From Balanoglossus misakiensis (Eukaryota; Animalia; Hemichordata): 64,000 nt of DNA. The notes beneath the pieces were generated by a model. The model did no database searches, had not been told where the DNA came from, and saw only the letters and a program-made list of their open reading frames with translations. Below, in pieces: positions 3,844 to 45,268 of this stretch; the stretch's first letter is position 1; the number at the start of each line of letters is the position of its first letter. The position numbers and the translations under genes were made by a program. Location of the stretch: assembly GCA_040954595.2 (NCBI GenBank), contig CM082579.2, positions 13,455,834 through 13,519,833 of the forward strand, in the 5' to 3' direction.

Positions 3844-3988
3844 TATTATCAACATTTTCAGTTTCATAATCCTTCTGGATGTCTTTGTCAGAAAATTTTG
3901 ACAGCAGCCAAAAACTTTCTCTGCCATACTCACAATAAGAGAAAGCTTGCACCTGTGTTTTACTGTTAAATTACCACACCACAAAATA

Positions 3989-4193
3989 CTGTAAAACGGG
4001 TTATTTTCGCAAGCAACTAATTTTTGCGAAATACGCGAGAGCCAACAAAATGTGAAAATAAAAAGTTGCGTAAAATGTTTTTCGGAGATAAAGATGCAAT
4101 GAAATACAAGAACATGAAAATTAATCCTCGCATAACAGTTGCCTCTTTTAATATCGCAAAAATTTCCTGTCACGAAAATAATCCGTTTTACAG
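3989..4193. mobile_element. TA-flanked MITE
   Basis: TA-CTGTAAAACGG...CCGTTTTACAG-TA. Related partial copies at ~13390-13582 and at the end of each 1.6 kb unit. Confidence 0.6.
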
Positions 4194-4348
4194 TAATATT
4201 GAAGGTCAGAATGCTTTTGATGAGAGAACAATACACCAGTTGCAAAGTATCTTGACTAACATAAAAATGATTGAATTTTCTGAAGAAGTTATAATCTCGC
4301 AGTTGGTGTATTGTTTCCTCATCAAAAGCATTCTGACCTTCAATATTA
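4194..4348. repeat. Foldback element with ~50-bp inverted arms (second copy ~13588-13741)
   Basis: TAATATTGAAGGTCAGAATGCTTTTGATGAG...CTCATCAAAAGCATTCTGACCTTCAATATTA. Confidence 0.75.
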
Positions 4349-8200: not shown

Positions 8201-11200
8201 TACTTCTCATTGCTCTTGGGAGACTGGCTTTGTAGAGGTGATTTGCACCTGTTCTAGTCTTTCTACTAGACATATTTTCTGTGTTTGCGATTGATGAATT
8301 ACTGTCTAATGGGAAATTTTTTGTAAACTTCGCGAGAACCAACAAATGCGAATTAAAAAGTCATATAAAAATGTTTTTCGGGGATATTGGTGAAGTTAGT
8401 GAAATATAAGAATGCGAAATTTAATTGTAGCATAACAGCTGTCTCTATTGATATTGCGAAAATTTCTTGTCACAGAAATTTCCCGTTTATTTAGTGTGTG
8501 TGTCTGTCAGTCTGTTGCATCAGTAACGACTTCACATGTGGATGCCACATTTTGATTCTTAGCAAATGTTGTATTTTGACACAGAGGAGTCCATTCCTCA
8601 ATCATATCACCCCGCAAACGGCCTGAACTCCAAAAACTTAGCAACAAAGCGTGAAGTACAGATGGTACCTATGAAGGATTATGCGGCTGATCCACACCAC
8701 ATGATACTTCTCAAAGGTTATCAACTTGCTGGTAGGTATCTGTTGCTATGCAAATATTTGCAATCATACCATCCTGATTCTAAAGTTCACAGGTCAAATA
8801 TATAACTTGTTTATGTGGCCATTTACAACCAATTCATCATTTTGTGGTTTGTTAAAATGTTACTCGAAATCGGTACTTCCATGAAATGGTTGTAATATAT
8901 TTAATAATATTTATTACACATCACAAATTATTATGCGCTCTTGGTTGGCTAATACTAAATATGATAGTACTTCATGACCTCTGCACACGAACTGTGCCTT
9001 ACAGAAGTTATTTTCGCGAATGATGCAGTGTATTCTGTTGCAGTACTTTCACAAGCCAAGCATTTTATTCCCCATCATGTCAATGCCTGGCCAATGAATT
9101 ACACATCCTCCTGAAAATTGCTGGTAGGTGAGAAATCAGTTTCCATGGTTGCATCCTGGATGAAACACTGGTACAGGTTCAAGACAAGTTTAGTGACATT
9201 GTGTAAATCCACAGAAGAATTTCACATCAACTCTATAATCTTCAATTTTTCTCATGATTGTGTTTCAGAAAAATCTGTGTCAAGTGGTGATACATAAGAG
9301 GTTGTCATCATGAAACCTAAAACCATAGCAACCACTTCAGTGTCTACAACCACTACCACAACACAGCCATTGAAACCCGCATCAACAGTTACCATGTTTA
9401 CAGCATCTACCTCCAGTATGACCTCAAATCCTCTCAAATCAACTGTTGGAAGTTCAACTCCAGGTAAAGTCTCCAGTGTTGCTTATGAGACATTTGTCAA
9501 ATTAGGTCCGCACATAATTAGACCACCAAGTGAAGTGTGAGATATAGTAGAATATTGCCATGTTGATCTTCACTACAATATTAGTTAAAGTTATATAGCA
9601 CTCTGTGATCAACGAGTTGAAAATACAGCATGAGCTGTAGTCCCCTTCATCAGCTGTACACGTAGAATGAACAGAGAAACAGAGAATCATGGGGTATTCA
9701 AAGTAGGAAATATGTGCAGGACCAGGTGCATCGATCAGAAAAATTTCCTACAGTGGATTTTCTATCTGAGGATGGTGACTTCATGACCGCGATATTGTGC
9801 CCTAGAGCGAGGCACTTTACTTCTCATTGCTCTTGGGAGACTGGCTTTGTAGAGGTGATTTGCACCTGTTCTAGTCTTTCTACTAGACATATTTTCTGTG
9901 TTTGCGATTGATGAATTACTGTCTAATGGGAAATTTTTTGTAAACTTCGCGAGAACCAACAAATGCGAATTAAAAAGTCATATAAAAATGTTTTTCGGGG
10001 ATATTGGTGAAGTTAGTGAAATATAAGAATGCGAAATTTAATTGTAGCATAACAGCTGTCTCTATTGATATTGCGAAAATTTCTTGTCACAGAAATTTCC
10101 CGTTTATTTAGTGTGTGTGTCTGTCAGTCTGTTGCATCAGTAACGACTTCACATGTGGATGCCACATTTTGATTCTTAGCAAATGTTGTATTTTGACACA
10201 GAGGAGTCCATTCCTCAATCATATCACCCCGCAAACGGCCTGAACTCCAAAAACTTAGCAACAAAGCGTGAAGTACAGATGGTACCTATGAAGGATTATG
10301 CGGCTGATCCACACCACATGATACTTCTCAAAGGTTATCAACTTGCTGGTAGGTATCTGTTGCTATGCAAATATTTGCAATCATACCATCCTGATTCTAA
10401 AGTTCACAGGTCAAATATATAACTTGTTTATGTGGCCATTTACAACCAATTCATCATTTTGTGGTTTGTTAAAATGTTACTCGAAATCGGTACTTCCATG
10501 AAATGGTTGTAATATATTTAATAATATTTATTACACATCACAAATTATTATGCGCTCTTGGTTGGCTAATACTAAATATGATAGTACTTCATGACCTCTG
10601 CACACGAACTGTGCCTTACAGAAGTTATTTTCGCGAGTGATGCAGTGTATTCTGTTGCAGTACTTTCACAAGCCAAGCATTTTATTCCCCATCATGTCAA
10701 TGCCTGGCCAATGAATTACACATCCTCCTGAAAATTGCTGGTAGGTGAGAAATCAGTTTCCATGGTTGCATCCTGGATGAAACACTGGTACAGGTTCAAG
10801 ACAAGTTTAGTGACATTGTGTAAATCCACAGAAGAATTTCACATCAACTCTATAATCTTCAATTTTTCTCATGATTGTGTTTCAGAAAAATCTGTGTCAA
10901 GTGGTGATACATAAGAGGTTGTCATCGTGAAACCTAAAACCATAGCAACCACTTCAGTGTCTACAACCACTACCACAACACAGCCATTGAAACCCGCATC
11001 AACAGTTACCATGTTTACAGCATCTACCTCCAGTATGACCTCAAATCCTCTCAAATCAACTGTTGGAAGTTCAACTCCAGGTAAAGTCTCCAGTGTTGCT
11101 TATGAGACATTTGTCAAATTAGGTCCGCACATAATTAGACCACCAAGTGAAGTGTGAGATATAGTAGAATATTGCCATGTTGATCTTCACTACAATATTA

Positions 11201-11720
11201 GTTAAAGTTATATAGCACTCTGTGATCAACGAGTTGAAAATACAGCATGAGCTGTAGTCCCCTTCATCAGCTGTACACGTAGAATGAACAGAGAAACAGA
11301 GAATCATGGGGTATTCAAAGTAGGAAATATGTGCAGGACCAGGTGCATCGATCAGAAAAATTTCCTACAGTGGATTTTCTATCTGAGGATGGTGACTTCA
11401 TGACCGCGATATTGTGCCCTTGAGCGAGGCACTTTACTTCTCATTGCTCTTGGGAGACTGGCTTTGTAGAGGTGATTTGCACCTGTTCTAGTCTTTCTAC
11501 TAGACATATTTTCTGTGTTTGCGATTGATGAATTACTGTCTAATGGGAAATTTTTGTAAACTTCGCGAGAACCAACAAATGCGAATTAAAAAGTCATATA
11601 AAAATGTTTTTCGGGGATATTGGTGAAGTTAGTGAAATATAAGAATGCGAAATTTAATTGTAGCATAACAGCTGTCTCTATTGATATTGCGAAAATTTCT
11701 TGTCACAGAAATTTCCCGTT
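5277..11720 (+). repeat. Tandem array of 4 near-identical ~1617-bp units, each with two MED25 pseudo-exons
   Basis: Matching ORFs recur at 5329/6949/8566/10183 and 6077/7693/9310/10927. Confidence 0.97.
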
Positions 11721-13896
11721 TTACAGTTCATAAATAAATCAACTAGATCTTTTTACTGCAGATGCCACACCAACTAATCATCTGTTACCTGGACGACCAA
11801 GTCAAATTGGAAGTCAGTCTCCACAACAACTGTCATCCTCTCAACAGAAACTGACTCAACCGAGTCAGCCCCAGATGCAGGGCCAAGGTAAAAGGTCATC
11901 AATGCCTGTTGCCCAGCCTACCAGTTTACCAAACCAACCAGTATCCACTGTCACAGCAAACAGGACACAACAACCCAATGTGACTGCCTCAAGTATCCCC
12001 ATGAGACAATTTTTGTCCACTCAGGTACAGTTGTTGTCTATGTGATTTAAATTAGCTGTTTCTAGTTACCCATCTTGTGAATTGAAAGCTTTTTATGACT
12101 GTTTCACATAGCCTTGTGTTACCATTTTCTATACAGTAAACTATTGTTTCAAAACACATTCAAAACTTCTGTTTTGGTTGCTAGAAACCCATTGTGAATG
12201 CAAAGACTCTTTTGGATAATGCCTGAGACTCAGTGATCAATTTCAATTTTTAATGAGATTAATGTTGATAAGCCCTAATGTGGGTATGTGTGTTGAAAAT
12301 AGGACTTAGAGAGTTGCAAGCTCAACATCGAATCAAAAATTGAAGTCATGAATTTAAAATGGGGTTTTGAATACTGGCCTTGATAATGCTTCATATTAAC
12401 TAGGTTTGTTACTCTTTTTGGACAGGCAACTTCACCACCAAAGATGACTTCCCAGCATGCACCAGCTGCTGCACTGAAAGTCGCAGAGGGTGTCATGCAA
12501 ATGGCAAATGCTAGTCAGTTCAGTAAGATGCCACCAATTGCTGCTGTGAATCCTATCAACTCACAGTCACGACAGAAATGGCCACAAAGAGGTAGGTACA
12601 GTCAAACCTGTCTATACTGGCCAGTCAAGGGACTTCCAAAACTGACATTTATAGACAGGTGGCTTCTATAGACTGGTCAATAAATGTGCAATGTACATGT
12701 ACATGAAATGAAACAAAGTTGCCACTACATAGAGGTGGCCACAAACACATAGTTGACTGTCATATATGTTATGTTGCCATGGCAGTCATTTACCATGAGT
12801 TCGATTATACATTGCCAAAACCGGAGGAAAAAAATATTCAAGTTCCCCTTTTCATATTCTCCATCAATGGTATAATACGCCAGTGTCATGACCACACACA
12901 ACTTCCACCCTGCTTGTAGCCACGAGAGTGAAAAAAACCTCACCAATATGAACAATCGGTCTCTATCATTTATTCATTTTGGGCGAGTTTTTATGCTCAT
13001 ATCATTCAAGCGGGATGGAAATTGTGTATGGTTGAACATTCATTCACTACATATACATATGTACATTAACATAAAATGTCTCTTGTATCAAACATAATGG
13101 AAAAAAAGGGCAGCGAGAGAGAGACTTTGTCCCTTTAATAGAAATGTGCATCTATTTCAACTATTACTTCTGTCTTGAACAATCTTTCCTTAATAGAGTG
13201 GTGTACTGATTAGAGAGATGTCTTATTGACAGGTTTCACTGTATAATATCAACATTTTCAGTTCCATAATCCTTCAGTGTTTGCCAGAGAATTTCGACAG
13301 CACTCAAAAACTTTCTCTGCCATACTCACAATAAGAGAAAGCTTGCACCTGTGTTTTACTGTTAAATTACCATACCACAAAAAACAGTTTGTTTTTGCGA
13401 GCAATAAAGTTTTCACGAAATATGCGAGAACCAACAAACGTGAAAATAAAAAGTCGCGTGAAATGTTTTTCGTAGATAAAGATGCAATGAAATACGAGAA
13501 TGTGAAAATTAATCCTCGCGTAACAGTTTGGTCTTTTAATGTCGCGAAAAATTTCCTTTCATGAAAATAATCCGTTTTACAGTCTGGTAATATTGAAGGT
13601 CAGAATGCTTTTGATGAGAGAACAATACACCAGTTGCAAAGTATCTTGACAAACATGAAATGATTGAATTCTCCAAAGAAGATATAATCTCGCAGTTGGT
13701 GTGTTGTTTCCTCATCAAAAGCATTCTGACCTTCAATATTATTCTGTTGAGCTATACATGCAATCTAGTCTATATATGAACAGAAACATTGTATATTGAT
13801 CTGCAACTCTCCTCCACATCCCTTGCCAAGTCAAGATAGTATTAATTACAGTGGATTTACTGCAAAACAATTGGCTGCCATGTTGGGTGAGGTAAG

Positions 13897-16341: not shown

Positions 16342-16675
16342 GGTCAGCGATGTAAAGGAGTAGCTCTAAGTGAGCGCTGTTTAAGGTGCGGTGGGGACAG
16401 TAGGGGTCTGTGTGCCAGCCAATCATATGCTGTCTGAAGCCCGCCGGAGGGAAAGTTTCCCGGGCTTGTCATTGCCACTTTTGCATTCGGCGGAGCAGCA
16501 GGCTGGACACGGGACGCTATTCCCTTCCGTAGTGTCAAGCGACACTGACAGCGGACTGTACGTTTATTCAAGTGGTACACTTTGACTTTCACGATCCTTG
16601 AGACAGCGGAACTGACCCATTCAGAGGTATTGTCACGATTTCTGAGATTATCGCTAACCTACCTTATCCACAGTT

Positions 16676-18022
16676 TTGAGACTTGGCTCGAACGCTCCCC
16701 CGATTGACACTGCTACTTTTGCCGCGTCGGACTGGCGAGAAAAAAGGGCAACGCTGAAGACACCTCAAACGCTACCTACGGGTAGGCCCGTGCCTGATCC
16801 TTCGCTCATTATATCTGGGTCTGTACCTGAATCAGTGCCCGCGCCGGACTCTGAAGTACAAAACTGGGCCGATCAACATGGGATCTTACTGCCAACTCTG
16901 AATGTGTTAGCGGCCAACGGGTTTACTACGATGCAAGTGGTCAGATTAATTCAGCATGACGATTTATATTTCATGAAGATATCTCCTCTTGCCCAGTTTC
17001 GGCAATTGGACGCAGCGCTTATCGAGCTTGCCTCACAGAAACGTACGACCGCTCGACGGGCAGATGTGGCGGGAGATCGAGATGCCACCCAAGTCGCTGA
17101 CCGGAACCGTGCGCCCTCGCATACGACGGCCGGACAACAATACACAGACAACATGGTGGCCCCCAGTACATCAGACTCCCACGAAGCCAGTTCAGCGAGC
17201 GCGAAGACCGTCGACTCCGAACAGGCACAAAAGGCAAGTCGAGGAGAAGTTGGACTGGACTCGCTGCTTCAGGCGTTGAATATCAACGCGGGACCACTGA
17301 ACAATGACCTGACCCCGCCCAGGAAGATACCTCAGCGCATGGACTTAGAACCCATGGTGTATTTAAAACCGGCGTCCATGGCAGGTTTGAAATTTTATGA
17401 CATTGTTGACTATGTACCAAGCTCCCTACAGGCTAAGGTCGACCAAAAAGTGCTGGCCTTTGGAGCGGGGGAAAACAAACTGGTGTTTGAATCGGGTCCA
17501 TCAAAACCAAAATTAGGGTTGGTGACCCCTCAGCAATGGTCTGCGGCCAACTCTCGCATTTTGTACGAACTCATTTCAAAGCACAATTACAACCTTACTC
17601 AAGTACAAGAGTATTCAGCATACACCATTAAAGTGTGTCAACTGGCAGACCGATATGAATGGGTGTCTGTTTTGCATTATGATCGGGAGTTCCGTAAACT
17701 ACAAGCAGCCTATAATTTACCATGGGGAACTGACTCCCAACATTTGTCCACTGTGTATTTGAGGGAAAAAGGGGCAGTGCAAAACAAAGCACGGGGGTCA
17801 TATCAGGTCAAAAATGGTAAGTCTACTTCTGCGGCGCCCGTTGATGTCAAGACAGGACAACCCATTTGTATCGGTTACAATAAAGGGGATTGCAAGTTCG
17901 GGGTAAAATGTAATTACAGTCATATATGTTTGGATTGCAAAAAGGGCCATTCCAAAATCAACCACCCAAACTTGTCAGGGGGGAACCAAAGAGCGAGAAC
18001 AAGCCGCTTCAAGGGTAACTGA
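16676..18022 (+). CDS. Ngaro ORF1 (gag-like) with C-terminal CCCH/CCHH zinc-finger cluster; true start uncertain
   Basis: 448-aa ORF with YEWVSVLHYDREFR and CIGYNKGDCKFGVKCNYSHICLDCKKGH, plus a SAM-like segment near the N terminus. Confidence 0.85.
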   Translation: MRLGSNAPPIDTATFAASDWREKRATLKTPQTLPTGRPVPDPSLIISGSVPESVPAPDSEVQNWADQHGILLPTLNVLAANGFTTMQVVRLIQHDDLYFMKISPLAQFRQLDAALIELASQKRTTARRADVAGDRDATQVADRNRAPSHTTAGQQYTDNMVAPSTSDSHEASSASAKTVDSEQAQKASRGEVGLDSLLQALNINAGPLNNDLTPPRKIPQRMDLEPMVYLKPASMAGLKFYDIVDYVPSSLQAKVDQKVLAFGAGENKLVFESGPSKPKLGLVTPQQWSAANSRILYELISKHNYNLTQVQEYSAYTIKVCQLADRYEWVSVLHYDREFRKLQAAYNLPWGTDSQHLSTVYLREKGAVQNKARGSYQVKNGKSTSAAPVDVKTGQPICIGYNKGDCKFGVKCNYSHICLDCKKGHSKINHPNLSGGNQRARTSRFKGN

Positions 18023-18221
18023 CCTGCCCACCCCTCCCCCCTTCCCTTCAGCCTTACGTTATGAAGCCTGGGTTACTGAAATTTTCCCCAATGACCCAGA
18101 CAAAGATTTTATTCTTGACGGGATTGAACAGGGTTTTTGCATTGTCGATCCTGGTTCTAATATCCGCCCTGCTGAGACAAATAATTACAAATCTGCAACG
18201 GACCCCTCATTTCGTGTTGCA

Positions 18222-19579
18222 GTGGAGGAACAAATTTTGGTTGAGTTGAGTGAAGGTCGTTATGAGGTCACATCTGACAAACCAACTATTGTAAGCGCAC
18301 TGGGGGCCATTCCCAAACAAAACTCACCAGATGTTAGACTGATTCATGATTGCAGTCAACCGCCCAATTTTGCAGTCAACGACTATGCAACTAATCCTTC
18401 GTTTTCCTTCCAAACCTTTGGGGAGGCCACCAAATTAATTAAGCCAGGGTCCTTTTTAGCTAAGGTGGATTTGAAGTCTGCATACAGGTCTGTCCGTATC
18501 CATCCATCTATTAATAGTGCTACTGGGTTGAAATGGACCTTTTCTAACATGCAAGAGGCTACTTATATGTTCGACACGAGGCTCCCATTTGGAGCCAAAA
18601 AGGCCCCCATCATTTTTCACCGTCTCACCCAAGCTGTGCGTAGGATGATGCATCGCAAGGGTTATGTTTGTTTAGTGGTCTACCTTGATGATTTCCTCAT
18701 TGTTGCAGATACTTACCAGGAGTGCCAAATTGCCCTGAACACCCTTATTTCATTGCTTCGTAAGTTAGGGTTTGCTATTGCTTGGGGTAAGGTTGAGAGA
18801 CCCACTCAACGGTTAGTATTTTTAGGTATTGAAATTGATACCCGCGCTTTTACTGTTGCCTTGCTGCTGCCAAAGCTTCATGAGCTTTATTCATTGCTGC
18901 TTATTTTTCACACAAAAACACATGCATCCCGCCGCCAGCTGCAATTCCTTGCTGGGAAATTAAACTGGGCTTGCCAGGTCATTGTCGGAGGTAGGACTTT
19001 CCTCCGTCGCATCCTGGATTGCATTAATAATCTCCGCCAACCTTCTCATAAAGTTATCCTTGGTAGGGAATTTAAGGCCGATCTTGATTGGTGGATTCGC
19101 TTTTTACCACATTTTAATGGCACTTGCAAGATTCTGAATACAGACCCTATAACTGATGTGCATACAGATGCTAGCAACACCGCTGCCGGTGCTTATTTTA
19201 AGGGGGATTGGGTGTACACCAGGTGGGCTGACTGGCCATCTACTTCACACTTCATATTAATTACAAAGAGGTGCTGGCTGTTGCAGTGGCAGCACAAAGA
19301 TGGGCACCTGTGTGGGCAAATCATAGAGTTGTAATTCACTCGGACAGTATGTCTGCTATGGGTATGCTTAATAAGGGGACATGTCGCCATCCATTCATGA
19401 TGTCTGTGCTTCGTTCTCTATTTTGGCTCTCAGCTTCTTACAACTTCAGCATTCAAGCAGTTTATGTTCCTGGTAAACTCAATCACATTCCTGATGCCAT
19501 TTCCAGGTTGCATCAACCAGGTCAGTTCATGAGGTTGCATACACTGCTCCACCCTTATGGAGAGCTCCATCTTAGCTAG
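18222..19579 (+). pseudogene. Ngaro reverse transcriptase-RNase H with one frameshift at ~19240-19255
   Basis: RLIHDCS, KVDLKSAYR, RLPFG, YLDD. RNase H TDAS, then HINYKE, HSDS and DAISR in the shifted frame. The reading frame extends upstream (EAWVTEIFPNDPDKDFILDGIEQGF). Confidence 0.92.
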
Positions 19580-19669
19580 CTTCCCACTTCACATGCCTTA
19601 TACTGCTGCTACCTTTCTTACTCGTCAGATCCAGAGATCAAACAGCTGGAGGAACATCTGGATAGGGAA

Positions 19670-20635
19670 GTGGCCACATATAGAGGAAGTGCCTTTGCAG
19701 AAAATACACAGCGCACATACTCTGTCCACTGGAAGTCATACATCTCCTTTTGTGTTATGATGGGTTACCCCCCTTTGCCAGCCAGTAGTGACCTGGTTTG
19801 TCGTTACACAGCCTACTTAGCTCGCCGTCTAAAGTTCAACTCAGTGAAGCAGTATTTAAATATTATTCGTATTTTGCACTTAGAGCATGGCTTCGCCAAT
19901 CCACTCCAAGACAATTGGCTGCTGACTATGCTGTTAAAGGGCATAGCCAAAGTTAAGGGAACTACAGTTGCCAGGAAGCTGCCTCTCACCCCCACATTGT
20001 TATTGGGCATTCACAGTCAGTTATGTTTTTCATCAGCCTTTGATTCTGTCTTTTGGGCAGCCTGCCTTGTGGGTTTCTTTGGGTTGCTGCGCAAATCCAA
20101 TTTCTTAGTTCCTTCAGGCTCTAAGTTTGACCCAGACAAACATCTAACTAGGGCTTCCTTCCAGGTGCATGCATGGGGTCTCACCATCATTATTCAATGG
20201 ACCAAAACGCTACAAACTCGGGATCGGGTTCTTCAAGTTCCTCTCCCATGGATTCGCAATCACCCATTATGCCCTGTTTCTGCAGTCCTTAGGGCATTTC
20301 AGCATTCTAAGGGGGCGCCCCCTACAGGCCCAGCCTTTGTCATCCCTGCAGGTAATGGTAGCTTCCGCCCGCTCACTGTCCCACAGTTCATCTCAAAGCT
20401 CCGCACCCATCTTAGTCGCCTAGGGGTGCAGGTCAGTGAATATTCTTCACACAGTCTCCGTCAGGGAGGGGCATCCTGGGCAATACAGTGTGGGGTTCCC
20501 AGTGATATAATTAAGCTGATGGGGGATTGGAGGAGTGACGCATACCTTTGTTACTTGGTCCTCCCCCTCCCTTTCAAAGTTAACTCTGTTAAGCTTTGTG
20601 CCAAACAGCTTCCTTTTTCTACTTCTACATTGTAA
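19670..20635 (+). CDS. Ngaro tyrosine recombinase
   Basis: LLRKSN (R), WTKT (K), LCPV, HSLRQGGA (HxxR), GDWRSDAYLCY (W, Y). Confidence 0.93.
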   Translation: MATYRGSAFAENTQRTYSVHWKSYISFCVMMGYPPLPASSDLVCRYTAYLARRLKFNSVKQYLNIIRILHLEHGFANPLQDNWLLTMLLKGIAKVKGTTVARKLPLTPTLLLGIHSQLCFSSAFDSVFWAACLVGFFGLLRKSNFLVPSGSKFDPDKHLTRASFQVHAWGLTIIIQWTKTLQTRDRVLQVPLPWIRNHPLCPVSAVLRAFQHSKGAPPTGPAFVIPAGNGSFRPLTVPQFISKLRTHLSRLGVQVSEYSSHSLRQGGASWAIQCGVPSDIIKLMGDWRSDAYLCYLVLPLPFKVNSVKLCAKQLPFSTSTL

Positions 20636-22638
20636 GCAAGTTTTCTATGACTACCACTACTATATTGGGTTTTTGGGAGAATTTTGTAGTAAACACAGAC
20701 AGACTTCAACTGTCCATTAGTATGTGTTTTTGTCAGTATTAAAGTTTCCCCCAAAGTTGTGCCCAATTTGTGTGTCCCAGTGTGGTTTGTGTGTGAGAGC
20801 CAGTGTGCCTTAAGGAGTAGCTCTAAGTGAGCGCTGATTAAGGCGCGGTGGGGACAGTAGGGGTCCGTGTGCCAGCCAAACATATGCTGTCTCAAGACCG
20901 CCGGAGGGAAAGTTTCCCGGGCTTGTCATTGCCACTTTTGCATTCGGCAGAGCAGCAGGCTGGACACGGGACGCTATTGACCCACCCTCCCACCACACAT
21001 TCCAGGGAATTTCTGCCTGTCTTTGTTGCTTTATATTATTTATATTTATTGTATTTATTAAAAGCATTGTTTGTATGCTTTGCATTATTTTCATAGTTCT
21101 TTTGATAGTGTAGTTTTCAGGGGGAGAATTTTGTAGTAAACACAGACAGACTTCAACTGTTCATTAGTATGTGTTTTTGTCAGTATTAAAGTTTTCCCCA
21201 AAGTTGTGCCCAATTTGTGTGTCCCAGTGTGGTTTGTGTGTGAGAGCCAGTGTGCCTTAAACATTTCATACAACACTGCCTACTAACAATAGTCATATCA
21301 ATCTGACAAGGGAAAATGAAAAAACACATCTTTTCAAACTAGCTTACTGTGCGGACCAATTTCATTAAGCTCCATTGAACAGCTATATTTTCTTGAATTC
21401 TGGTTTTATAATTAATTTTGATTGATTGACATGTGTTTTACATCTAAATGCATCGCTTTGGGAACATTTTCTCGTATGTATGAGATTATTAAATTGAACT
21501 TGTATATTTGCTGAGGGCAACTAAATGTTCAGTAAAGATGAGGAATGCTCAATGTTTGGATTGTCTTCAAAAAGATGACAACAACTCAAGTCTCAAAAAC
21601 TCTTTGTTTTGAATTTTGAATTGTTTTTGTTGCATCAGTAACGACTTCACATGTGGATGCCACATTTGATTCTTAGCAAATGTTGTATTTTGACAGAGAG
21701 GAGTCCATTCCTCAATCATATCACCCCGCAAACGGCCTGAACTCCAAAAACTTAGCGACAAAGCGTGAAGTACAGATGGTACCTATGAAGGATTATGCGG
21801 CTGATCCACACCACATGATACTTCTCAAAGGTTATCAACTTGCTGGTAGGTATCTGTTGCTATGCAAATATTTGCTATCATACCATCCAGATTCTAAAGT
21901 TCACAGGTCAAATATATAACTTGTTTACGTGGCCATTTACAACCAATTCATCATTTTGTGGTTTGTTAAGATTTTTATTACTCTAAATTGGTACTTCCAT
22001 AAAATGGTTGTAATATTTATTACACATCACGTATTGTTATGCGCTCCTGGTTGGCTAATACTAAATATGACAGAACTTCATGACCTCTGCACACGATCTG
22101 AGGCTTAAGGAAGTTATTTTCGCGAGTGATGCAGTGTCTTCTGTTGCAGTACTTTCACAAGCCAAGCATTTTATTCCCCATCATTTCAATGCCTGGCCAA
22201 TGAATTACACATCCTCCTGAAAATTGCTGGTAGGTGAGAAATCAGTTTCCATGGTTGCATCCTGGATGAAACACTGGTACAGGTTCAAGACAAGTTTAGT
22301 GATATTGTGTAAATCCACAGAAGAATTTCACATCAACTGTATAATCTTCTATTTTTCTCATGATTGTGTTTCAGAAAAATCTGTGTCAAGTGGTGATACA
22401 TAAGAGGTTGCCATCGTGAAACCTAAAACCATAGCAACCACTTCAGTGTCTACAACCACTACCACAACACAGCCACTGAAACCCGCATCAACAGTTACCA
22501 TGTTTACAGCATCTACCTCCAGTATGACCTCAAATCCTCTCAAATCAACTGTTGGAAGTTCAGCTCCAGGTAAAGTCTCCAGTGTTGCTTACGAGTCATT
22601 TGTCATAATTAGACCACCAAGTGAAGTGTGAGATATTG

Positions 22639-22830
22639 AACACCTATTGCCTGGCCATGAGGGCCATAGCGGCCGTTTATTACACCCGAGGGGCTGTGAG
22701 TTACCAGAATCACATGCTATTTCTCGAGGCCGTAGGCCGAGGGAAATAGCGTATGATTCTGGTAACTCACAGCCACGAGGGTGTAATAAACGGCCGCTAT
22801 GGCCCGAATATAGGCCAGGCTATAGGTGTT
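22639..22830. repeat. Long imperfect palindrome with a GGCC-GTA-GGCC apex
   Basis: Arms AACACCTATTGCCTGGCC...GCTGTGAGTTACCAGAATCA and TGATTCTGGTAACTCACAGC...GGCCAGGCTATAGGTGTT; loop 22732-22734. Confidence 0.95.
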
Positions 22831-23040
22831 TTATAATAAACCTCATGCTAACAGTTTATGTTTGCAATATTGAACAAGTTTAATTAAATACCTTGAATAC
22901 GAAATACAATAAATTCAACATGAACGGATGCTATAACCCGAATAAAACAGCTTACGGCTTATTATAATGTAATATGCAAAATTTGGTAAGCTGACAAAGT
23001 ACAACTTTTGACAGTAAATTGGCTTCGGATTCCATAAAGC

Positions 23041-24402
23041 CTAATTGTTGTGGATGTTGACGACGCATCCATGAAAGTTATAGTTCACTACTTTCTTACT
23101 ACCGCTCACTTCTTGTTGAGTAACAAAATTAACCGGCGGCGGCGGAGAAGAAGTAGTCAGTTCACTCAGAAATGACCGTTGCAAGGGCGATGCCATTATC
23201 GGAGCTAGCGACGACTGCGGCTGTTCTATTGTTTGTGCGCCTTCTATCTGTTCGTTTGTCGACGAACTTCCTTGAATAGCACTGGAAAGTGTACGGCTCA
23301 TTTCTCGCTTCTTGTCTTCACCAACTCTGCTATAACTTCTGATACTGGTCTCTGATTTGTGACCACTAACTCCCATGATATGCCGTGCCTCAAAGCCTTT
23401 GTCGTCCAGCGTTGTCACAGTGGTAGCACGCAAACAGTGGTTGGTGTACGTACGAGAACATTCAGCTTCGACAGATATTTTCTTCATTTTGTCGGCGAGC
23501 GTATTTTTACCAACTGCTATGCTGTCATACCAAACAGAGTCATCTTGACTTTTCAGTGCTGGTTTTGGTCGCTGCCAAAAAGCCTCAGAGTTTGGGTTTA
23601 GCTTTGTTAAATACAATTCAAAAGACCAAACTGGACATAGCGAGTTTTCAGGAGTCTCGTACATCCTCCCTCCTTGACTCATTTCCGCGTCGTCTATACA
23701 GCCACGGTGATTTTTCGTCAGCATATCTTTACAGAGCGACACATATTTCAGGCCCGTTGAATCACGTTGGACGACGAAGTGCGACTTCGTCATGTTACGT
23801 AGATTTTCGCGGCCGCGATTGCATAGATACATCATAATATCAACGAAAACCTTGTTTTGTAACCCGCGTGGCGTTGACTTGTCAAGTGCAGACGACAACA
23901 TCATTTTTGTCATGTCATCTTTGGTAATGGGTTCTTTATGTTGCGTTGCACCCTTACCCTCGCCTTTCAGTTTTACAAGCATTGCAGTGAATACATCATT
24001 GGCAGGCTTGAAAATCTCACTGTGGATGATGTCGGTGCCGCACTGTTTCAGAAAATATCGTTGTAAGCCATATCGTATTGTTATCATTGACTTACTCGAA
24101 TACAGCTGTGCGTTGTTCTGTCGAACCCCAGCGTAGAAATCCCGCAGCGTGAGACACAAATCGGCTGGCGCAGTCTTTTCCACGTCGGATATGGTAGTAC
24201 CAATTTCTTCACAAAACGAAGTAAAAATCCTCGTTGCGTATTGAATTACATATTTGGTGTTACGTGAATCCTTGTTGTCGACAAGGTGTTGCAGTTCTTG
24301 CTCCGACAAAAGGGAAAATCTTGCAATTTTCTCTTTAGGTTGGCATACGACATCTTCAGCGGTGGCCATTGTGCTAGCAGACGACGCGACGTTGATTGAC
24401 AT
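23041..24402 (-). CDS. Crypton tyrosine recombinase (DUF3504 / KCTD1-ZMYM-QRICH1-related family), intact 453 aa
   Basis: NRGRENLR, TKNHRG, LCPVWSFELY, WYDSIAVGKNTL, YTNHCLRAT, SGHKSETSIRSY give a complete R-K-HxxR-H-Y set. Intronless. Confidence 0.92.
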   Translation of the reverse strand: MSINVASSASTMATAEDVVCQPKEKIARFSLLSEQELQHLVDNKDSRNTKYVIQYATRIFTSFCEEIGTTISDVEKTAPADLCLTLRDFYAGVRQNNAQLYSSKSMITIRYGLQRYFLKQCGTDIIHSEIFKPANDVFTAMLVKLKGEGKGATQHKEPITKDDMTKMMLSSALDKSTPRGLQNKVFVDIMMYLCNRGRENLRNMTKSHFVVQRDSTGLKYVSLCKDMLTKNHRGCIDDAEMSQGGRMYETPENSLCPVWSFELYLTKLNPNSEAFWQRPKPALKSQDDSVWYDSIAVGKNTLADKMKKISVEAECSRTYTNHCLRATTVTTLDDKGFEARHIMGVSGHKSETSIRSYSRVGEDKKREMSRTLSSAIQGSSSTNEQIEGAQTIEQPQSSLAPIMASPLQRSFLSELTTSSPPPPVNFVTQQEVSGSKKVVNYNFHGCVVNIHNN

Positions 24403-25378
24403 GACCCTGTGACGTCACGTTGGTCACGTGACCGGTTTATATTTTTTCTGCTATTGCCCTATCGGTTCATAGTCGATTCTATTTTCCTATCACGTGACGG
24501 ATTCTGGCGAATCACGGCACAGTATTAGCATGAGGTATATTATAAAGTAGAATATTGCCATGTTGATCTTCACTACAATATTAGTTAAAGTTATATAGCA
24601 CTCTGTGATCAACGAGTTGAAAATACAGCATGAGCTGTAGTCCCCTTCATCAGCTGTACACGTAGAATGAACAGAGAAACAGAGAATCATGGGGTATTCA
24701 AAGTAGGAAATATGTGCAGGACCAGGTGCATCGATCAGAAATATTTCCTACAGTGGATTTTCTATCTGAGGATGGTGACTTCATGACCGCGATATTGTGC
24801 CCTTGAGCGAGGCACTTTACTTCTCATTGCTCTTGGGAGACTGGCTTTGTAGAGGTGATTTGCACCTGTTCTAGTCTTTCTACTAGACAAATTTTCTGTG
24901 TTTGCGATTGATGAATTACTGTCTAATGGGAAATTTTTGTAAACTTCGCGAGAACCAACAAATGCGAATTAAAAAGTCATATAAAAATGTTTTTCAGGGA
25001 TATTGGTGCAGTTAGTGAAATATAAGAATGCGAAATTTAATTGTAGCATAACAGCTGTCTCTATTGATATTGCGAAAATTTCTTGTCACAGAAATTTCCC
25101 GTTTTACAGTTCATAAATAAATCAACTAGATCTTTTTACTGCAGATGCCACACCAACTAATCATCTGTTACCTGGACGACCAAGTCAAATTGGAAGTCAG
25201 TCTCCACAACAACTGTCATCCTCTCAACAGAAACTGATTCAACCAAGTCAGCCCCAGATGCAGGGCCAAGGTCAAAGGTCATCAATGCCTTTTGCCCAGC
25301 CTACCAGTTTACCAAACCAACCAGTATCCACTGTCACAGCAAACAGGACTCAACAACCCAATGTGACTGTTTCAAGTA

Positions 25379-29500: not shown

Positions 29501-31354
29501 GTGGAAAATTTGTATTAAAATCGTGATCTCTAAAAAAAGAGTGAGAACTTGATTTTGAGTGATATTGCAGTACAAAATTACAAAAAAATACTTTTTATAC
29601 CTTGGGGAAGTGTTAATTATTCAGAAAAAAAATATATTCTGAAATTTTCCAACTTCAGAATTTTTCCAACTGCAACAGAGGATATGATTATTTCATCAAC
29701 TAACATGTAAAAGTTATTTAAAAAGTCAACTATGTCAATTAATGCATTATCTGGAAAGATACCTTTTACGTGTCATGAATTACTATAGTTAATATATAGA
29801 TAAAGGCCTTCATGCAATATTACATACACCAACACTTCATTTTGCAGTACGTGAGCTGCGGTGTACTGGCTTTTGCACTTGTCTGAGCTGCAGAAAGTCT
29901 TATCATATTGAAATTTACAGAAGGCATTGTTCCCTGCTGTTTTAGAGCTGTGAGTTAACTGCGTAGAGCTGCCGTTTGTCTACACAATGTTCTAAAAAAG
30001 CTGTCAAAGAGAATTTGGTCTGCTGCCAACAAATGACAGCTCAGAACAACCATTGCAGACCTGCAGATGAGCTGTGGATAGCTGACACAGCTCTAAATCA
30101 GAGCTGCAGCAGCTCTCTGCAGATCTGCAGGTTTGGTAAGGGATGTAGATGGTGAAAGGACGTGACAAGACTCGAATCTGAATCAGAATATGAATCTTGG
30201 GCTGTGGAACGTGAAACGTGAAACTTGAAACGTGAATCTTGAATTAGGCTTACCCTAATTTTTAATGGGTATATTCTTGATAACTCATCACCATGAATGA
30301 TCATTTCAAAACTTAACAAGGCATATGGCTAAAGAGGATTCAGTGTTTGTGCACCTTCTATCTGCAATGCTGGATCTATTGACAGTTTTCAAAGGGGTTT
30401 AAAGACTCGTCTTTTTATTCAGTACTTTCTATTTCATTCCATTGCTTTTTTGGTTAATAGGGACTGTCTTTCAGAACTCTTTGGTTTGTTTCGTGTTTTT
30501 AAGTGTAATTTATTATCCTTTAAGCTTTCACTTGTTTTCTAATTTTATTATTTTCTGTAGAAAATGCACTGAGATGTATGTGTATTATGTTTGTCAGGAA
30601 ATAAATAATAATAAAATTAAAAATAATAAACTGTCTTTGATTTCAGATGTCAATGAATGTATGGAGAGAGCAGATCTTTGTGAAGGCCAGTGTGTGAATA
30701 CAGCAGGCTCTTTTTATTGCACTTGTGTTGTGGGATATTGATTGGTCAATTGAGAGTGTACAGGTAAGACCAGCACAATATGTGGGCAACGAAAGGTCCT
30801 GTATCTGTAACTTTTGAATTTTTATTCAATATTATTCTGGGTGTCACCCATCATTTCTTGTTCAGCTCGGTGAAGCTAGGTCTGTAACTTTTGAATTTTT
30901 ATTCAATATTATTCTGGGTGTCACCCATCATTTCTTGTTCAGCTCGGTGAAGGTAGGTAAGCAATGTTGTTATTGTTTAAACATTGTATTCAAGCCTGGG
31001 TCTGGACTTGGATGCAATTTGTCAATAATAACAGTGATTGGTAACTGCATGTTTACATAACTGGCTAACTGTTAAAAAGACCAGCTGTTCTATTTGGTGT
31101 GTGTACAGTACACATGCCATTGGCAGCTTATGGCTCAGTCAGTGTTTGCCTGTTGATTTCTCTATGTGTGTGTGTCTGTCTGTCTGTCTGTATATGTACT
31201 CCGGTGTAGACTTTTTTATTGTGTTATCCCTGAATGGGACCACTGTGTCCTTAACGCGATGTTTTACACTCAGCAGCGATATTTTGTCTAACACGAGTCA
31301 AAATATCCCCAACTCGTCTGAGAAATCTTATCCCAGGTCCTAAGGTTGTGAGAC

Positions 31355-31752
31355 TAATAGAATCTCACACTCCCAAGGACTTGGGATCATATTTCTCACA
31401 TGTGTTGAGGATTTTCTGTCCCAAACAAGCTGCAGGCGAATGTGGGACAAGATATCCCCGACGAGTGTGAGAAATACGATCCCAGGTCCTTGGTGTGTGA
31501 GATTATTTTTCTCACACGGTCACAAATTAGCCAAATTCGTTAAATAAATGACTCTTGAACTGTCATCTGGTACATTGTAGATTCAGTATCGCGTCATTGG
31601 ATAACATTTAGCACATGTTGTTAAAGAACTCTTTGTCATCCAATCAGCGCTCGCATCATATACAGCTCTCGATTCAGTGAGAATGTGGGATTGATTTGTT
31701 CTCACACTCTGTCTGATCCAACACTCTCAGCATGCCAGGAGTGTGAGAATCT
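31355..31752. mobile_element. Degenerate non-autonomous Crypton-like hairpin element (copies ~35678-36071, ~46250-46646, partial ~51059-51416)
   Basis: Hairpin ~31361-31504, internal GTGTGAGAT-TATTT-TTCTCACAC, right end GTGTGAGAAT. Confidence 0.55.
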
Positions 31753-34655: not shown

Positions 34656-37600
34656 TAATTTTTAATGGGTATATTCTTGATAACTCATCACCATGAATGA
34701 TCATTTCAAAACTTAACAAGGCATATGGCTAAAGAGGATTCAGTGTTTGTGCACCTTCTATCTGCAATGCTGGATCTATTGACAGTTTTCAAAGGGGTTT
34801 AAAGACTCGTCTTTTTATTCAGTACTTTCTATTTCATTCCATTGCTTTTTTGGTTAATAGGGACTGTCTTTCAGAACTCTTTGGTTTGTTTCGTGTTTTT
34901 AAGTGTAATTTATTATCCTTTAAGCTTTCACTTGTTTTCTAATTTTATTATTTTCTGTAGAAAATGCACTGAGATGTATGTGTATTATGTTTGTCAGGAA
35001 ATAAATAATAATAAAATTGAAAATAATAAACTGTCTTTGATTTCAGATGTCAATGAATGTATGGAGAGAGCAGATCTTTGTGAAGGCCAGTGTGTGAATA
35101 CAGCAGGCTCTTTTTATTGCACTTGTGTTGTGGGATATTGATTGGTCAATTGAGAGTGTACAGGTAAGACCAGCACAATATGTGGGCAACGAAAGGTCCT
35201 GTATCTGTAACTTTTGAATTTTTATTCAATATTATTCTGGGTGTCACCCATCATTTCTTGTTCAGCTCGGTGAAGGTAGGTAAGCAATGTTGTTATTGTT
35301 TAAACATTGTATTCAAGCCTGGGTCTGGACTTGGATGCAATTTGTCAATAATAACAGTGATTGGTAACTGCATGTTTACATAACTGGCTAACTGTTAAAA
35401 AGACCAGCTGTTCTATTTGGTGTGTGTACAGTACACATGCCATTGGCAGCTTATGGCTCAGTCAGTGTTTGCCTGTTGATTTCTCTATGTGTGTGTGTCT
35501 GTCTGTCTGTCTGTATATGTACTCCGGTGTAGACTTTTTTATTGTGTTATCCCTGAATGGGACCACTGTGTCCTTAACGCGATGTTTTACACTCAGCAGC
35601 GATATTTTGTCTAACACGAGTCAAAATATCCCCAACTCGTCTGAGAAATCTTATCCCAGGTCCTAAGGTTGTGAGACTAATAGAATCTCACACTCCCAAG
35701 GACTTGGGATCATATTTCTCACATGTGTTGAGGATTTTCTGTCCCAAACAAGCTGCAGGCGAATGTGGGACAAGATATCCCCGACGAGTGTGAGAAATAC
35801 GATCCCAGGTCCTTGGTGTGTGAGATTATTTTTCTCACACGGTCACAAATTAGCCAAATTCGTTAAATAAATGACTCTTGAACTGTCATCTGGTACATTG
35901 TAGATTCAGTATCGCGTCATTGGATAACATTTAGCACATGTTGTTAAAGAACTCTTTGTCATCCAATCAGCGCTCGCATCATATACAGCTCTCGATTCAG
36001 TGAGAATGTGGGATTGATTTGTTCTCACACTCTGATCCAACACTCTCAGCATGCCAGGAGTGTGAGAATCTATTACGAGTTTGAAATCTTAGGTGAAGAG
36101 TTTATCAATTTCACTGCCAACCCTGTAGGGCATTCTGGGATATGTGTTCATGCCAAAGCACAAACAGCCATGACCTGACAGCTCAGTTTGTAGATCATTT
36201 CTACAAATCCACAAAGAGACTCAAAGTTTAGAAATGTTGTGTCGGTTAGAAATATTAGACGTATCACTGTTAATACTTTATTTCAAAGCCATGTGAATTT
36301 GTTCACATTAGGGAAATTTTTTAAAGGAAGGGAGGATTGGTATTGACTTGAATAATTACAATGGATGTATTGTCCACCTCTATATAGTGCCCACTTTATT
36401 CTAGTCCCTGTGTAATTTATATCTACATTAATTGACTTTTCTACCAGGTATGATGGCCACCTGTCTATAAAGGCCAGTTTAGGAAAGTCCCTTTACTAGC
36501 CATAATGGACAGGTTTGACTGCACTTGTGTTGATTTCTGTCTGTAATACGTGTAACACAATCATAAAATTTTTCATAAAGAGGGCACACTTCCAAAATAA
36601 GGTGTCATCTCCAAGCAGACAATGTGAAAAAGGAGGCCGGTAGGTTACAGAGTACTGCTCGAGCTCATCTACTTTGTTGTATACATGATACAAGTTGCGT
36701 GTAAAACTGACCTTACAATAAAATGTGGCTGTGGAAAGTCTGTCCCAACTATAGTGTTGATACACAAGACAAAGTTTTTACTCTTTGACCAACTGGCCTC
36801 ATGTTTGCGTCTTGGAAGGGCACCCTCTTTATGAAAAAGGCATATGATATCACTACAAGGAATAAATTAACATGATAGAACATTGCTGATTAATGTCATA
36901 GATCATGATAACATGAATGCATAGCAATGTTTTGGTACAATTTGGTACATAAAGAAATGGACTACTGTGACAGTATTGACTCTGGGCACTACGTAGATGA
37001 TTCCCAGCCTCAAAATTCTGACTTGCTTCACCGTTGGAAGAAGTCAGTTTTCAGGTTAACATGTATATTTGTACAGAGTGTGGCATTAGTGAGTGGTTGC
37101 ATCACATCAATGCATGACAAAAGGTCATCACTGTGTAAGACTCAGAAATAGAATTTGAATACAAATCCTATTAAACAAAATATTCTAAAATTTACATGTT
37201 ATTTTAACACCTGTTTACTCCTATAAAAGTGAGTGCACGTGTTTTCGAGGTCTCTTCAATTCAGAAGCCACTGTGTAGGCCTTAGTTGGTGCATGCAGCT
37301 CGTAGACTTAGAAATTAAGTTTGGTTCAACTCAAACGCTTCAAGTCCAGTTAACCATCTCACACTTCTGACACTGGTGGGATTCAAACCAACTTCATCGA
37401 AATGACTGCAGGTGCCTAAAACCCCTTGACTGTAGGACACAAATGCCTGACAGTGATATAACTATGTTATAATGTTACATCGACAATACATACGTTTGGG
37501 GATATGTTGTCTCAAATGATCAAATTGAGACAAATTATCCCCATCTTGTTATAAATCTGAGCCCAGGTGTCTTTGGTGTGAGATTCCAGTAGTCAAGAGT

Positions 37601-39993
37601 AGGCTTACCTTGAATAATGTAATGCTTGTAAATTATTTCGAATTTCTTCTTACCCTCCAGATATGAATTAATGTCACAGTTGTGGAAATGCGTGTCAACA
37701 CTATTGTCAGAATACCCATGGTAGTTATCTCTGCGCTTGCAGACAAGGCTTCAATGTGCTGGAGGATGGCCATGCATGTGCAGGTATGTAACTGTGGATA
37801 TTGATCTCTTCTGTGGCTACACTGTTTGGGGATTGTATATTGCTATGGTTACAATCAGCTAAACTCACATCCTGTCAGTCCATTGCACACATTTTAAAAT
37901 TTGAAATCAACCGCACACTCGTACTGAACACATGTTTGTTGAAATTGTATCTCAGAATTTTTCCATTTATAATTATGCATAATATAAACAAATTAACAAA
38001 TGTGAAAACTTATCTTTGAAAATTTGTTTGCAAGGGTGAAAAAGTAATCTGTTGTTTTAAAAATCAGACAAAGTTTTGCTGACAGGGTACACGAGTTTCA
38101 GGGGATTTTGTTAAAATGAGAATGATAGAGAGTGTTAAAATTCCTAGATTCTGAGATTGCCATGGATATTGAGGACTTTGACGTAAAAACAATTAATTGA
38201 TCAAGAAATATGTGGTTAAGTATATGTGTGATCAACCTCACACTATACTATAAGACTGTCTGATATATTTATGCACAAGTACAATGTATTTTCACTACTT
38301 ATATGCATAACTCAATCAAATTAACATAATTTATCGACCTATAGCTAAATAAATTACCACAGCAAAGAATAAATATACACTTAGAAAATTCATATAGTTT
38401 TCATCTCATTTTAAAGAAATTATAAATGCTTCTCCGAGGGGTACAATAATTTTTAGGGTAAGCCTAATTCAAGATTCACGTTTCAAGATTCACGTTTCAT
38501 GTTCCACAGCCCAAGATGCATATTCTGATTCAGATTCCAGTCTTGTCTAATATGTTTATGCTGCCGTAACCAGGGGTGTGAACGATTGTTTATTGTCCTC
38601 GATCCCCGCCCAAGCAAGGTTCCCCAAATATTGAAATTTACAGAAGGCATTGTTCCCTGCTGTTTTAGAGCTGTGAGTTAACTGCGTAGAGCTGCCGTTT
38701 GTCTACACAATGTTCTAAAAAAGCTGTCAAAGAGAATTTGGTCTGCTGCCAACAAATGACAGCTCAGAACAACCATTGCAGACCTGCAGATGAGCTGTGG
38801 ATAGCTGACACAGCTCTAAATCAGAGCTGCAGCAGCTCTCTGCAGATCTGCAGGTTTGGTAAGGGATGTAGATGGCGAAAGGACGTGACAAGACTCGAAT
38901 CTGAATCAGAATATGAATCTTGGGCTGTGGAACGTGAAACGTGAAACTTGAAACGTGAATCTTGAATTAGGCTTACCCTAATTTTTAATGGGTATATTCT
39001 TAATAACTCATCACCATGAATGATCATTTCAAAACTTAACAAGGCATATGGCTAAAGAGGATTCAGTGTTTGTGCACCTTCTATCTGCAATGCTGGATCT
39101 ATTGACAGTTTTCAAAGGGGTTTAAAGACTCGTCTTTTTATTCAGTACTTTCTATTTCATTCCATTGCTTTTTTGGTTAATAGGGACTGTCTTTCAGAAC
39201 TCTTTGGTTTGTTTCGTGTTTTTAAGTGTAATTAATTATCCTTTAAGCTTTCACTTGTTTTCTAATTTTATTATTTTCTGTAGAAAATGCGCTGAGATGT
39301 ATGTGTATTATGTTTGTCAGGAAACAAATAATAATAAAATTAAAAATAATAAACTATCTTTGATTTCAGATGTCAATGAATGTGTGGAGAGAGCAGATCT
39401 TTGTGAAGGCCAGTGTGTGAATACAGCAGGCTCTTTTTATTGCACTTGTGTTGTGGGATATTGATTGGTCAATTGAGAGTGTACAGGTAAGACCAGCAGA
39501 ATATATTGGCAACGAAAGGTCCTGTATCTGTAACTTTTGAATTTCTATGGCATAAATACCATACCTTTGATCCAACCTATAGCCTAATATATCTCGCCCT
39601 CTAACGACCGCTGAGATAAAAAACTTTCCCCTGATTACGTCATACTCACCGAGTACATATACCACCTGTCCAGCCGTGAATATTCAGTATTATTATCTCA
39701 GCACGAGACAGCGGACATCTTCTCTCTTGAGGTGTTGGATTTTTGTCAAGAAGTGCTCAGCCCTTCGACCATTGCTGCTTTTCGCCTGAGGTTTTTCGAT
39801 TGGGGAAGTAGATAAGTAACGACTTATTTTCTAAACTGCTTGCTTGTGTTATTTTGGCACTTGCAAAGTTTGTTTTTCGGATTTTTCCCACACGTGTACG
39901 GGTCAGTGTGTAGGGCTTCTGCGGTATTGTCTTTTCATATAGCCTTCAGAAGCCATTTTTGCCCGTGCATTTTTTCGTGTTTTCACTGGAACC

Positions 39994-44719: not shown

Positions 44720-45268
44720 TAGCCTGGTTCTTTCTGTTGGAATTTTGTTTTTTCGGTTCAAGTCCCACCGCCAGTTGTTCCTTGGGACTCTGTAGGCTAT
44801 AGGTTGGATCAAAGGTATGGTATTTATGCCATAGAAACAAAACATTTTTTATTTTCGTTTCTGTTAGTAAATACTTACCTTTGATCCAACCAGATACCCA
44901 CCCGCCTCCCCACACTTGACCTGTGACTGTTTTTCCATTATTCATAAATTTTGGATGGGTCCTCAGTGCGTGGGCAGCATAGTTTCGGCCTGAGCAGTTA
45001 TTTCTCGTGCTGAGCAATACTGAATATTCACGGCTGGACAGGTGGTATATGTACTCGGTGAGTATGACGAAATCAGGGGAAAGTTTTTTATCTCAGCGGT
45101 CGTTAGAGGGCGAGATATATTAGGCTATAGGTTGGATCAAAGGTAAGTATTTACTAACAGAAACGAAAATAGAAAATTTTTTGTTTTTATTCAATATTAT
45201 TCTGGGTGTCACCCATCATTTCTTGTTCAGCTCGGTGAAGCTAGGTAAGCAATGTTGTTATTGTTTAA

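Follow-up and report, generated by a model that had tools for sequence, protein, structure and literature searches.

A terminal hairpin abutting an inverted copy of the far end in a CryptonA element of Balanoglossus misakiensis, and a possible recombination site formed by single-strand folding

In a 64,000-nucleotide stretch of the Balanoglossus misakiensis genome (NCBI GenBank assembly GCA_040954595.2, contig CM082579.2, positions 13,455,834 to 13,519,833 of the forward strand; this whole stretch is called the window, and its own numbering is used throughout), an intact DNA transposon of the CryptonA type carries a long hairpin at its left end, and the inner arm of this hairpin directly abuts an inverted copy of the right end of the element. 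The feature is real and conserved, and it makes the element a variant of CryptonA for which a single-strand mechanism can be tested. With moderate confidence, we propose that the two ends act as one composite recombination site that is formed by the folding of a single DNA strand, in the manner of integron attC and CTX phage attP sites. The proposal draws on the inner copy of both ends, on mismatches that mark one strand of the hairpin in this element and its relatives, and on the retention of the whole arrangement in gene-less derivatives.

Results

Terminal hairpin and inner copy of the ends

An initial annotation of the window had described the left ~190 bp of the element as a hairpin with a c-GTA-g apex, and this description holds. 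The 192 nt at 22639-22830 (apex 22732-22734) fold at -94.7 kcal/mol, against a mean of -27.3 for 200 shuffled sequences, none of which reached as low an energy (z -19.7), and the minus strand of the hairpin also folds (z -18.5). The stem is interrupted by three tandem GA/GA mismatches that the annotation had overlooked; their positions are given with the parts of the element below.

22637 to 24545, no strand assigned: whole CryptonA element, 1909 bp, delimited by empty paralogous units and by a sequencing-run contig lacking these bases
22637 to 22638, plus strand: first two bases, TG, missing from the inner copy and unpaired in the predicted circular single-strand fold
22639 to 22731, plus strand: outer hairpin arm (A); its GA steps lie at 22659-60, 22688-89 and 22726-27
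22732 to 22734, plus strand: GTA triloop with a C-G closing pair; a GCA variant is present in the sequencing runs
22735 to 22830, plus strand: inner hairpin arm (A'); its GA steps at 22739-40, 22777-78 and 22806-07 lie opposite 22726-27, 22688-89 and 22659-60, respectively
22831 to 22851, plus strand: inverted copy of the right end (B'), which abuts A'; the inner junction copy consists of B' and the end of A'
24525 to 24545, plus strand: right end (B), present in every deletion derivative listed

The segment 22830-22851 matches 24525-24546 as a 22-nt inverted repeat with 95% complementarity. The internal inverted copy of the circle junction that had been claimed is therefore present, but it is not exact: relative to the junction it is without the first two bases of the element, TG, and it has one mismatch on each side (22839 versus 24537, and 22821 versus 22648). 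In sequencing run X2, the mismatch on the right-end side is not listed as variable, and that on the left side is listed at about 8%. The inverted match across the gene extends over only 21-22 bases, and one of its two copies is internal. Two pairs of family variants that look compensatory (22671/22795 and 22684/22782) were not counted, because the short contigs that contain them can be aligned to either arm.

Ends and insertion site

The element occupies one unit of a 1617-bp host repeat, and comparison with four empty units shows that it lies there without target duplication. The corresponding empty-site junctions are at 6312/13, 7928/29, 9545/46, and 11162/63.

6296 to 6330, plus strand: empty target in a paralogous unit of the host repeat; further ones lie at about 7912, 9529 and 11146

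A contig of run X2 represents the empty allele and omits exactly 22637-24545. The empty-site comparison places the exchange point between two neighbouring positions at which target and element differ; three of the four bases beside the joint are identical between the flank and the right end. According to the same comparison and to the relatives described below, no previous flank was brought along at the element ends, which are fixed. The element is mobile and multi-copy, with 33-38 contigs showing different left-end flanks, and lacks a true target-site duplication, as expected for CryptonA. The host unit contains a threonine-rich reading frame and is arranged in tandem at 5277-11721 and 21259-25378, the Crypton splitting one copy.

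Recombinase gene

The element encodes one long open reading frame (ORF).

23041 to 24402, minus strand: tyrosine recombinase ORF of 453 aa without an internal stop, DUF3504/CryptonA type, with R196, K230, H322, R325, H348 and Y357

The ORF gives 44.1 bits with the Pfam family DUF3504 (cut-off 29.7), while Phage_integrase and QRICH1 remain under their own cut-offs. H322, R325, H348, and Y357 align with the H-x-x-R motif, the His, and the Tyr of XerA. R196 and K230 were assigned by position and conservation (55/56 and 56/56 aligned homologues, respectively), and R196, K230, H322, R325, and Y357 are each present in 54-56 of the 56 aligned sequences. The earlier statement that every catalytic residue is kept is thus confirmed, in the case of R196 through conservation. 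The named homologues are from echinoderms, molluscs, and horseshoe crab, with identities of 40-56% for the echinoderm and mollusc proteins. The predicted structure (predicted local distance difference test score of 81) matches a QRICH1 complex, Cre, XerA, and the Tn1549 integrase, with the integron integrase placed lower. In the run contigs the ORF differs from the window copy at two positions, one of which is silent and the other of which changes Ile to Val. Judged by its sequence, the ORF is an intact CryptonA recombinase that keeps the catalytic R-H-R-Y residues, not a domesticated DUF3504 gene. Neither the ORF list nor the Pfam result reveals gag, reverse transcriptase, or RNase H, and the ORF list also contains no polymerase or Rep protein. 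Several palindromes of the CACGTG/TGACGTCA type at 24400-24500, immediately upstream of where the recombinase ORF starts, are possibly its promoter.

Predicted fold of the circular strand

In the lowest-energy fold calculated for the circular single strand, 24526-24545 pairs with 22850-22831, and the bases from 22639 onward pair with those from 22830 downward, leaving 22637-22638 unpaired. In this predicted fold, the two ends and the inner copy together make up a single bulged duplex site. The dinucleotide that precedes arm A, whose readout presupposes the two-base offset, was readable in 15 of 21 examined loci (of 26) and is TA in 12, TT in two, and TG in one. The offset itself is independently shown only in the window element, by its empty site, and in the five-copy L019 family, which has TA at all left ends and TC in two right flanks, those two sharing a flank.

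Distribution among relatives

An alignment scan gave 271 confirmed metagenome matches, of which the best 80 were used together with two genome-contig matches; the same type of scan of viral contigs gave one weak locus, and scans of metagenome and viral contigs with the single protein gave no matches. Among the 40 sufficiently long loci, 19 have a hairpin of at least 60 nt in the first 1 kb downstream of the catalytic region; upstream, 7 of 31 loci do. The presence of the hairpin is independent of whether the gene is intact (11/23 intact and 8/16 broken; Fisher p 1), and the loci that have it are dispersed over a quick tree of the metagenome relatives. An inverted copy of the far end near the hairpin base was found in 8 of 22 testable loci (p 0.002 each), four of which (L004, L011, L027, and L074) have the match starting 5-22 nt from the called hairpin base, and an exact 11-nt inverted far-end copy is present in five copies of one further family. 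No hairpin was found by a relaxed scan of 38 other loci, for which the scan sensitivity was 15/26. The hairpin and the inner site, whose absence from other copies would have spoken against the initial annotation, both recur in relatives, the hairpin in about half of the long loci. The layout is widespread in relatives, and we do not call it universal because many loci and one clade are without the hairpin and the sensitivity of the scan is limited. A distant and broken Crypton recombinase lies at 2493-4110 of L082, a contig that is binned as a bacterial genome and resembles animal DNA; a GA/GA hairpin is situated there upstream of the gene and on the sense strand, the limits of the element are unsure, and no far-end match was found at this locus (p 0.056).

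Strand signature of the hairpins

The 26 hairpin loci form 13 clusters, and one chosen copy from each of 12 was compared; the L011 cluster was omitted since its hairpin is truncated by the end of the contig. Isolated 2x2 mismatches in these 12 clusters, read on the antisense strand of the gene, are GA/GA in 26 cases, TC/TC in none, and other combinations in 14. GA/GA occurs in 10 of the 12 clusters (sign test p 0.002, the clusters not being fully independent). The confinement of GA/GA to the antisense strand indicates that one folded DNA strand is involved. As many as 50 of 52 GA steps stand in the Y-GA-R context, which favours sheared pairs. An apex motif composed of GA, a short stem, a loop of 3-4 nt, the stem, and GA was found in 11 metagenome loci, always antisense and downstream of the gene, and also in the window element and L082, while 347,142 shuffled bases gave no matches. 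The initial annotation had named conservation of the GNA loop as a check; the loop of the 11 metagenome loci is GAA in nine, GCA in one, and GTCA in one. Covariation of the arms, another check named there, was observed as compensatory change at 48 of 55 consensus pairs over 12 hairpins, which had been selected for folding. We regard the mismatch pattern as stronger evidence than the covariation, because any maintained palindrome gives compensatory change. In L019 and L055, the basal mismatch of sister copies is fully paired, which suggests occasional repair from arm to arm. In DNA, tandem GA stacks are unusually stable (PMC8163305), and GNA loops mark the single-stranded hairpins of telomeres (PMC5449611).

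Copies and gene-less derivatives

Of five sequencing runs, two cover most of the element, and the family within the host was followed in contigs of four of the five; these contigs and the metagenome relatives were used in place of a whole-genome alignment of copies. No RNA data set was among those listed as containing the element, which is no evidence about its expression. In run X2, the summed depth is about 67,000-118,000 at the ends and 540 in the gene, where depth is not to be read as a copy number. The 14 joints listed for this run comprise one empty site, three small low-depth deletions within the hairpin, and 10 internal deletions. All 10 internal deletions have their left break at 22846-22857 and their right break at 24312-24500, so that what is left in the derivatives is the hairpin, B' almost complete, and the right end. 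These derivatives probably share ancestry and should therefore not be counted as ten independent events. One derivative retains only 46 bases of the gene's upstream end, and a 508-nt contig from a second organism corresponds to one complete derivative. Because abundant gene-less derivatives retain the hairpin and the inner copy together with the right end, both are part of the element, as had been claimed. A miniature inverted-repeat transposable element lying independently beside the Crypton was considered and rejected: the empty site shows one insertion, and the derivatives join the hairpin end to the right end.

Other elements in the window

A gene-less element of unrelated sequence and the same design is located at 50280-50735; its hairpin has GA/GA and a C-GTA-G apex, and it has a 13-nt inverted match between 50420-50432 and 50719-50731. 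[quoted passage not shown] Its ICR matches the junction without a gap and has a few substitutions elsewhere. From 16355 to 21260 extends a Ngaro/PAT-like retrotransposon whose direct repeats are split; it has one ORF for a reverse transcriptase and one that resembles a recombinase. A LINE-type ORF with endonuclease and reverse transcriptase is present at 57721-60420. A repeated long hairpin with some facing GA steps occurs at 31347-31516, 35670-35839, and 46239-46403, and no far-end match was found for the copy at 31347-31516. Another long hairpin, at 4194-4348 and 13588-13741, stands beside a short inverted-repeat element at 3987-4195; it is without GA/GA, and the copy at 4194-4348 was left out of the counts for that reason.

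Discussion

The arrangement of the ends suggests a route by which the element might move. In the predicted plus-strand fold, A' is paired with the left end and its neighbour B' with the right end, and the two ends thus meet opposite the continuous inner strand. The strand might be exposed during replication and then fold, after which the recombinase would cut and join the two ends to give a single-stranded circle. One strand of the folded junction could then be exchanged with a double-stranded, A/T-rich target, and the four-way intermediate would be resolved by replication in the host, as in integron attC and CTX phage attP. The two-base bulge might choose the strand to be cut, and the GA/GA pairs and the GNA loop might make one strand fold more readily and at the same time break up the palindrome in its double-stranded form. 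After one exchange of this kind, each flank would still be paired with the other target strand and each end with the inner copy. Homology past the cut would therefore not be required, which fits the observed switch between two adjacent mismatched positions. Were the inner strand cut instead, the product would be an isoform in which the gene is flipped and the two extra bases lie inside; none was seen in the run contigs. Among the three uses of the sites that the initial annotation had considered, foldback circularisation of single-stranded DNA is the best supported. A broader view, to which we give only tentative credence and which is more doubtful than the composite site itself, is that CryptonA hairpin elements move as a folded single strand by one exchange, that the ICR of DIRS is the same kind of site, that DIRS cDNA may integrate as a single strand, and that one mechanism links Cryptons, DIRS, and integrons.

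Several observations weigh against a composite site formed by folding. The antisense hairpin is the more stable one in only 14 of 21 loci according to the energy model, and the energies of the circular fold are about the same for the two strands (-436.9 and -438.2); the preference for one strand rests on the mismatch pattern because the energy model shows no clear difference between the strands. No circle junction is among the joints listed for the run contigs, although contigs cannot show absence. A derivative in run X1 (22735 to 24500, depth 418) is without A' and B'. As for the relatives, 20 of 39 long loci have no hairpin, a well-supported clade of 11 rows (L021, L022, L032, L038, L045, and their kin) contains none with such a hairpin, though the sensitivity of the scan used is only 15/26, and 14 of the 22 testable hairpin loci are without a significant far-end match. 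Near-direct repeats of 6 bp at the two ends are seen in several relatives, as would be expected if a double-stranded circle were used, and the predicted fold of the recombinase is nearer to Cre (rank 2) than to the integron integrase (rank 36).

The double-stranded route is the published model for Cryptons, in which the direct repeats are 4-6 bp long (PMC3212892), and active CryptonF insertions agree with it (PMC9977147). In that case a double-stranded circle would undergo two exchanges at a short, near-identical core, and the hairpin and the inner copy would be accessory, serving as binding sites, a cruciform, or a regulatory structure. The three of four bases shared by the flank and the right end beside the joint, the 6-bp direct repeat in L019, and the lack of a hairpin in half of the related loci agree with it. 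It would leave unexplained why facing GA/GA appears on one strand only, why B' abuts A', and why derivatives retain B'; moreover, the products switch between two adjacent mismatched positions, unlike those of 6-bp heteroduplex repair. We consider it unlikely, though more probable than the other alternatives. The strand that folds is antisense to the gene and would correspond to a cDNA strand, which brings a DIRS-like route into view: the element would be transcribed, a reverse transcriptase borrowed from DIRS or Ngaro would make antisense single-stranded cDNA, and the inner copy would template or splint the missing ends. DIRS-like and Ngaro-like elements are present in the window. DIRS-1 makes antisense, single-stranded cDNA and cannot do without its ICR, and its reverse transcriptase is stated to act in trans (PMC7192593). 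The ends and the inner copy of the Crypton, however, differ by two extra bases and two mismatches, whereas the DIRS of the window matches its ICR gap-free at the junction. Copying in every cycle would erase such differences, and the DIRS-like route is disfavoured for this reason. The derivative with only 46 bases of the gene's upstream end and the GA strand of L082, which is the sense strand in an element of unsure limits, also speak against this route, which we judge to be quite improbable.

B and B' form inverted repeats around the gene, and the gene of L082 has the opposite orientation relative to its hairpin. These features would suit an inner copy that serves as a third double-stranded site for inversion of the gene segment, or a hairpin that primes replication of a linear strand, both of which had been raised in the initial annotation. 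The idea of three separate double-stranded sites with segment inversion is not supported, since no inverted or otherwise strand-changing joint is among those listed for the run contigs, which cannot show absence, and the orientation is constant, the motif being antisense in 11 of 11 metagenome motif loci. Priming is likewise unsupported, as the hairpin lies at the 5' end of the strand that GA/GA and the GNA loop would stabilise, and no polymerase or Rep protein is encoded; we hold either use to be very unlikely. An equally faint prospect, if not a fainter one, is that the hairpin works in an antisense RNA, as a silencing or protein-binding signal, and not in DNA. The folded strand is consistently antisense, and tandem GA pairs are stable in RNA too. 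Such a role would leave unexplained the match of the inner copy to both ends across the junction, and C-GNA-G triloops are known as a DNA motif (PMC3201870).

The only Crypton family observed to be active shows clean excision together with a gain of copies (PMC9977147). A folded single-strand route with replicative resolution could explain such a gain without target duplication. In the window copy the enzyme is intact, the ends are exactly defined, an empty target is available, and little is required in cis (about 215 bases at the left end, down to 46 at the right end); the proposal is therefore testable with oligonucleotides. If it is true, recombination of the integron type would extend to eukaryotes, the integration of DIRS would receive a hint, and a one-gene integrase for single-stranded DNA would be at hand. 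The layout is also a structural signature for spotting gene-less Cryptons among unclassified repeats.

Published CryptonA elements resemble the present one in having a single DUF3504-type recombinase gene, a length of about 2 kb, homologues in animal hosts, abundant gene-less derivatives, and no target duplication (PMC3212892). Unlike them, the window element has a terminal hairpin and an abutting inverted copy of the far end. In the account of Kojima and Jurka (2011, PMC3212892), animal Cryptons yielded no terminal repeats and all CryptonA rows are given as "n.d.", and a 2026 paper still describes Cryptons as being without terminal inverted repeats (PMC13465315). Because the published absence of repeats is a failure to find them, we treat the hairpin as a new feature and not as grounds for exclusion from CryptonA. 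Human Eulor5/6 are classed as CryptonA in passages that do not mention hairpins (PMC5753468). The layout was not found described in the literature on Cryptons, CryptonA inverted repeats, or Eulor, in a search that lay outside Repbase, Dfam, and subscription papers. Repbase presumably notes a hairpin structure for some Eulor repeats, and the hairpin alone may already be known.

In elements of the DIRS-1 type, copies of both outer ends likewise lie side by side in inverted orientation at an internal site close to one end, a tyrosine recombinase is likewise used, and a single-stranded intermediate has been shown (Malicki et al. 2020, PMC7192593). The Crypton differs in being without gag, reverse transcriptase, and RNase H, in having its inverted arms as a local hairpin and not as terminal repeats that flank the genes, and in the 2-base bulge that its inner copy leaves, in contrast to the gap-free junction match of the DIRS at 39542-45186. 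The analogy with the DIRS ICR drawn in the initial annotation therefore applies to the internal region complementary to both termini and is incomplete with regard to the two-base gap and the missing reverse transcriptase; the inner copy brings the ends together like an ICR, but the element is not a DIRS. The likeness to recombination between integron attC and attI would lie in a folded strand, little conservation of sequence, and extrahelical bases that set the choice of strand, and attC undergoes a single strand exchange that is resolved by replication (Bouvier 2009, PMC2727003; Loot 2012, PMC3458562). The attC site is one local hairpin, whereas the Crypton site would combine both ends with the inner copy, and by its predicted structure the Crypton recombinase resembles the integron integrase no more closely than it does Cre. 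CTX phage makes its single strands by rolling circle and uses the host XerC/D and a fixed dif site, whereas the Crypton encodes its own enzyme and appears to use short A/T-rich targets. The attP(+) site of CTX is built in a similar way, in that a fold makes one duplex site with a bulge (PMC3442271). What the Crypton site would share with both attC and CTX attP, according to its predicted fold and to a geometry conserved among relatives, is intramolecular pairing combined with unpaired bases.

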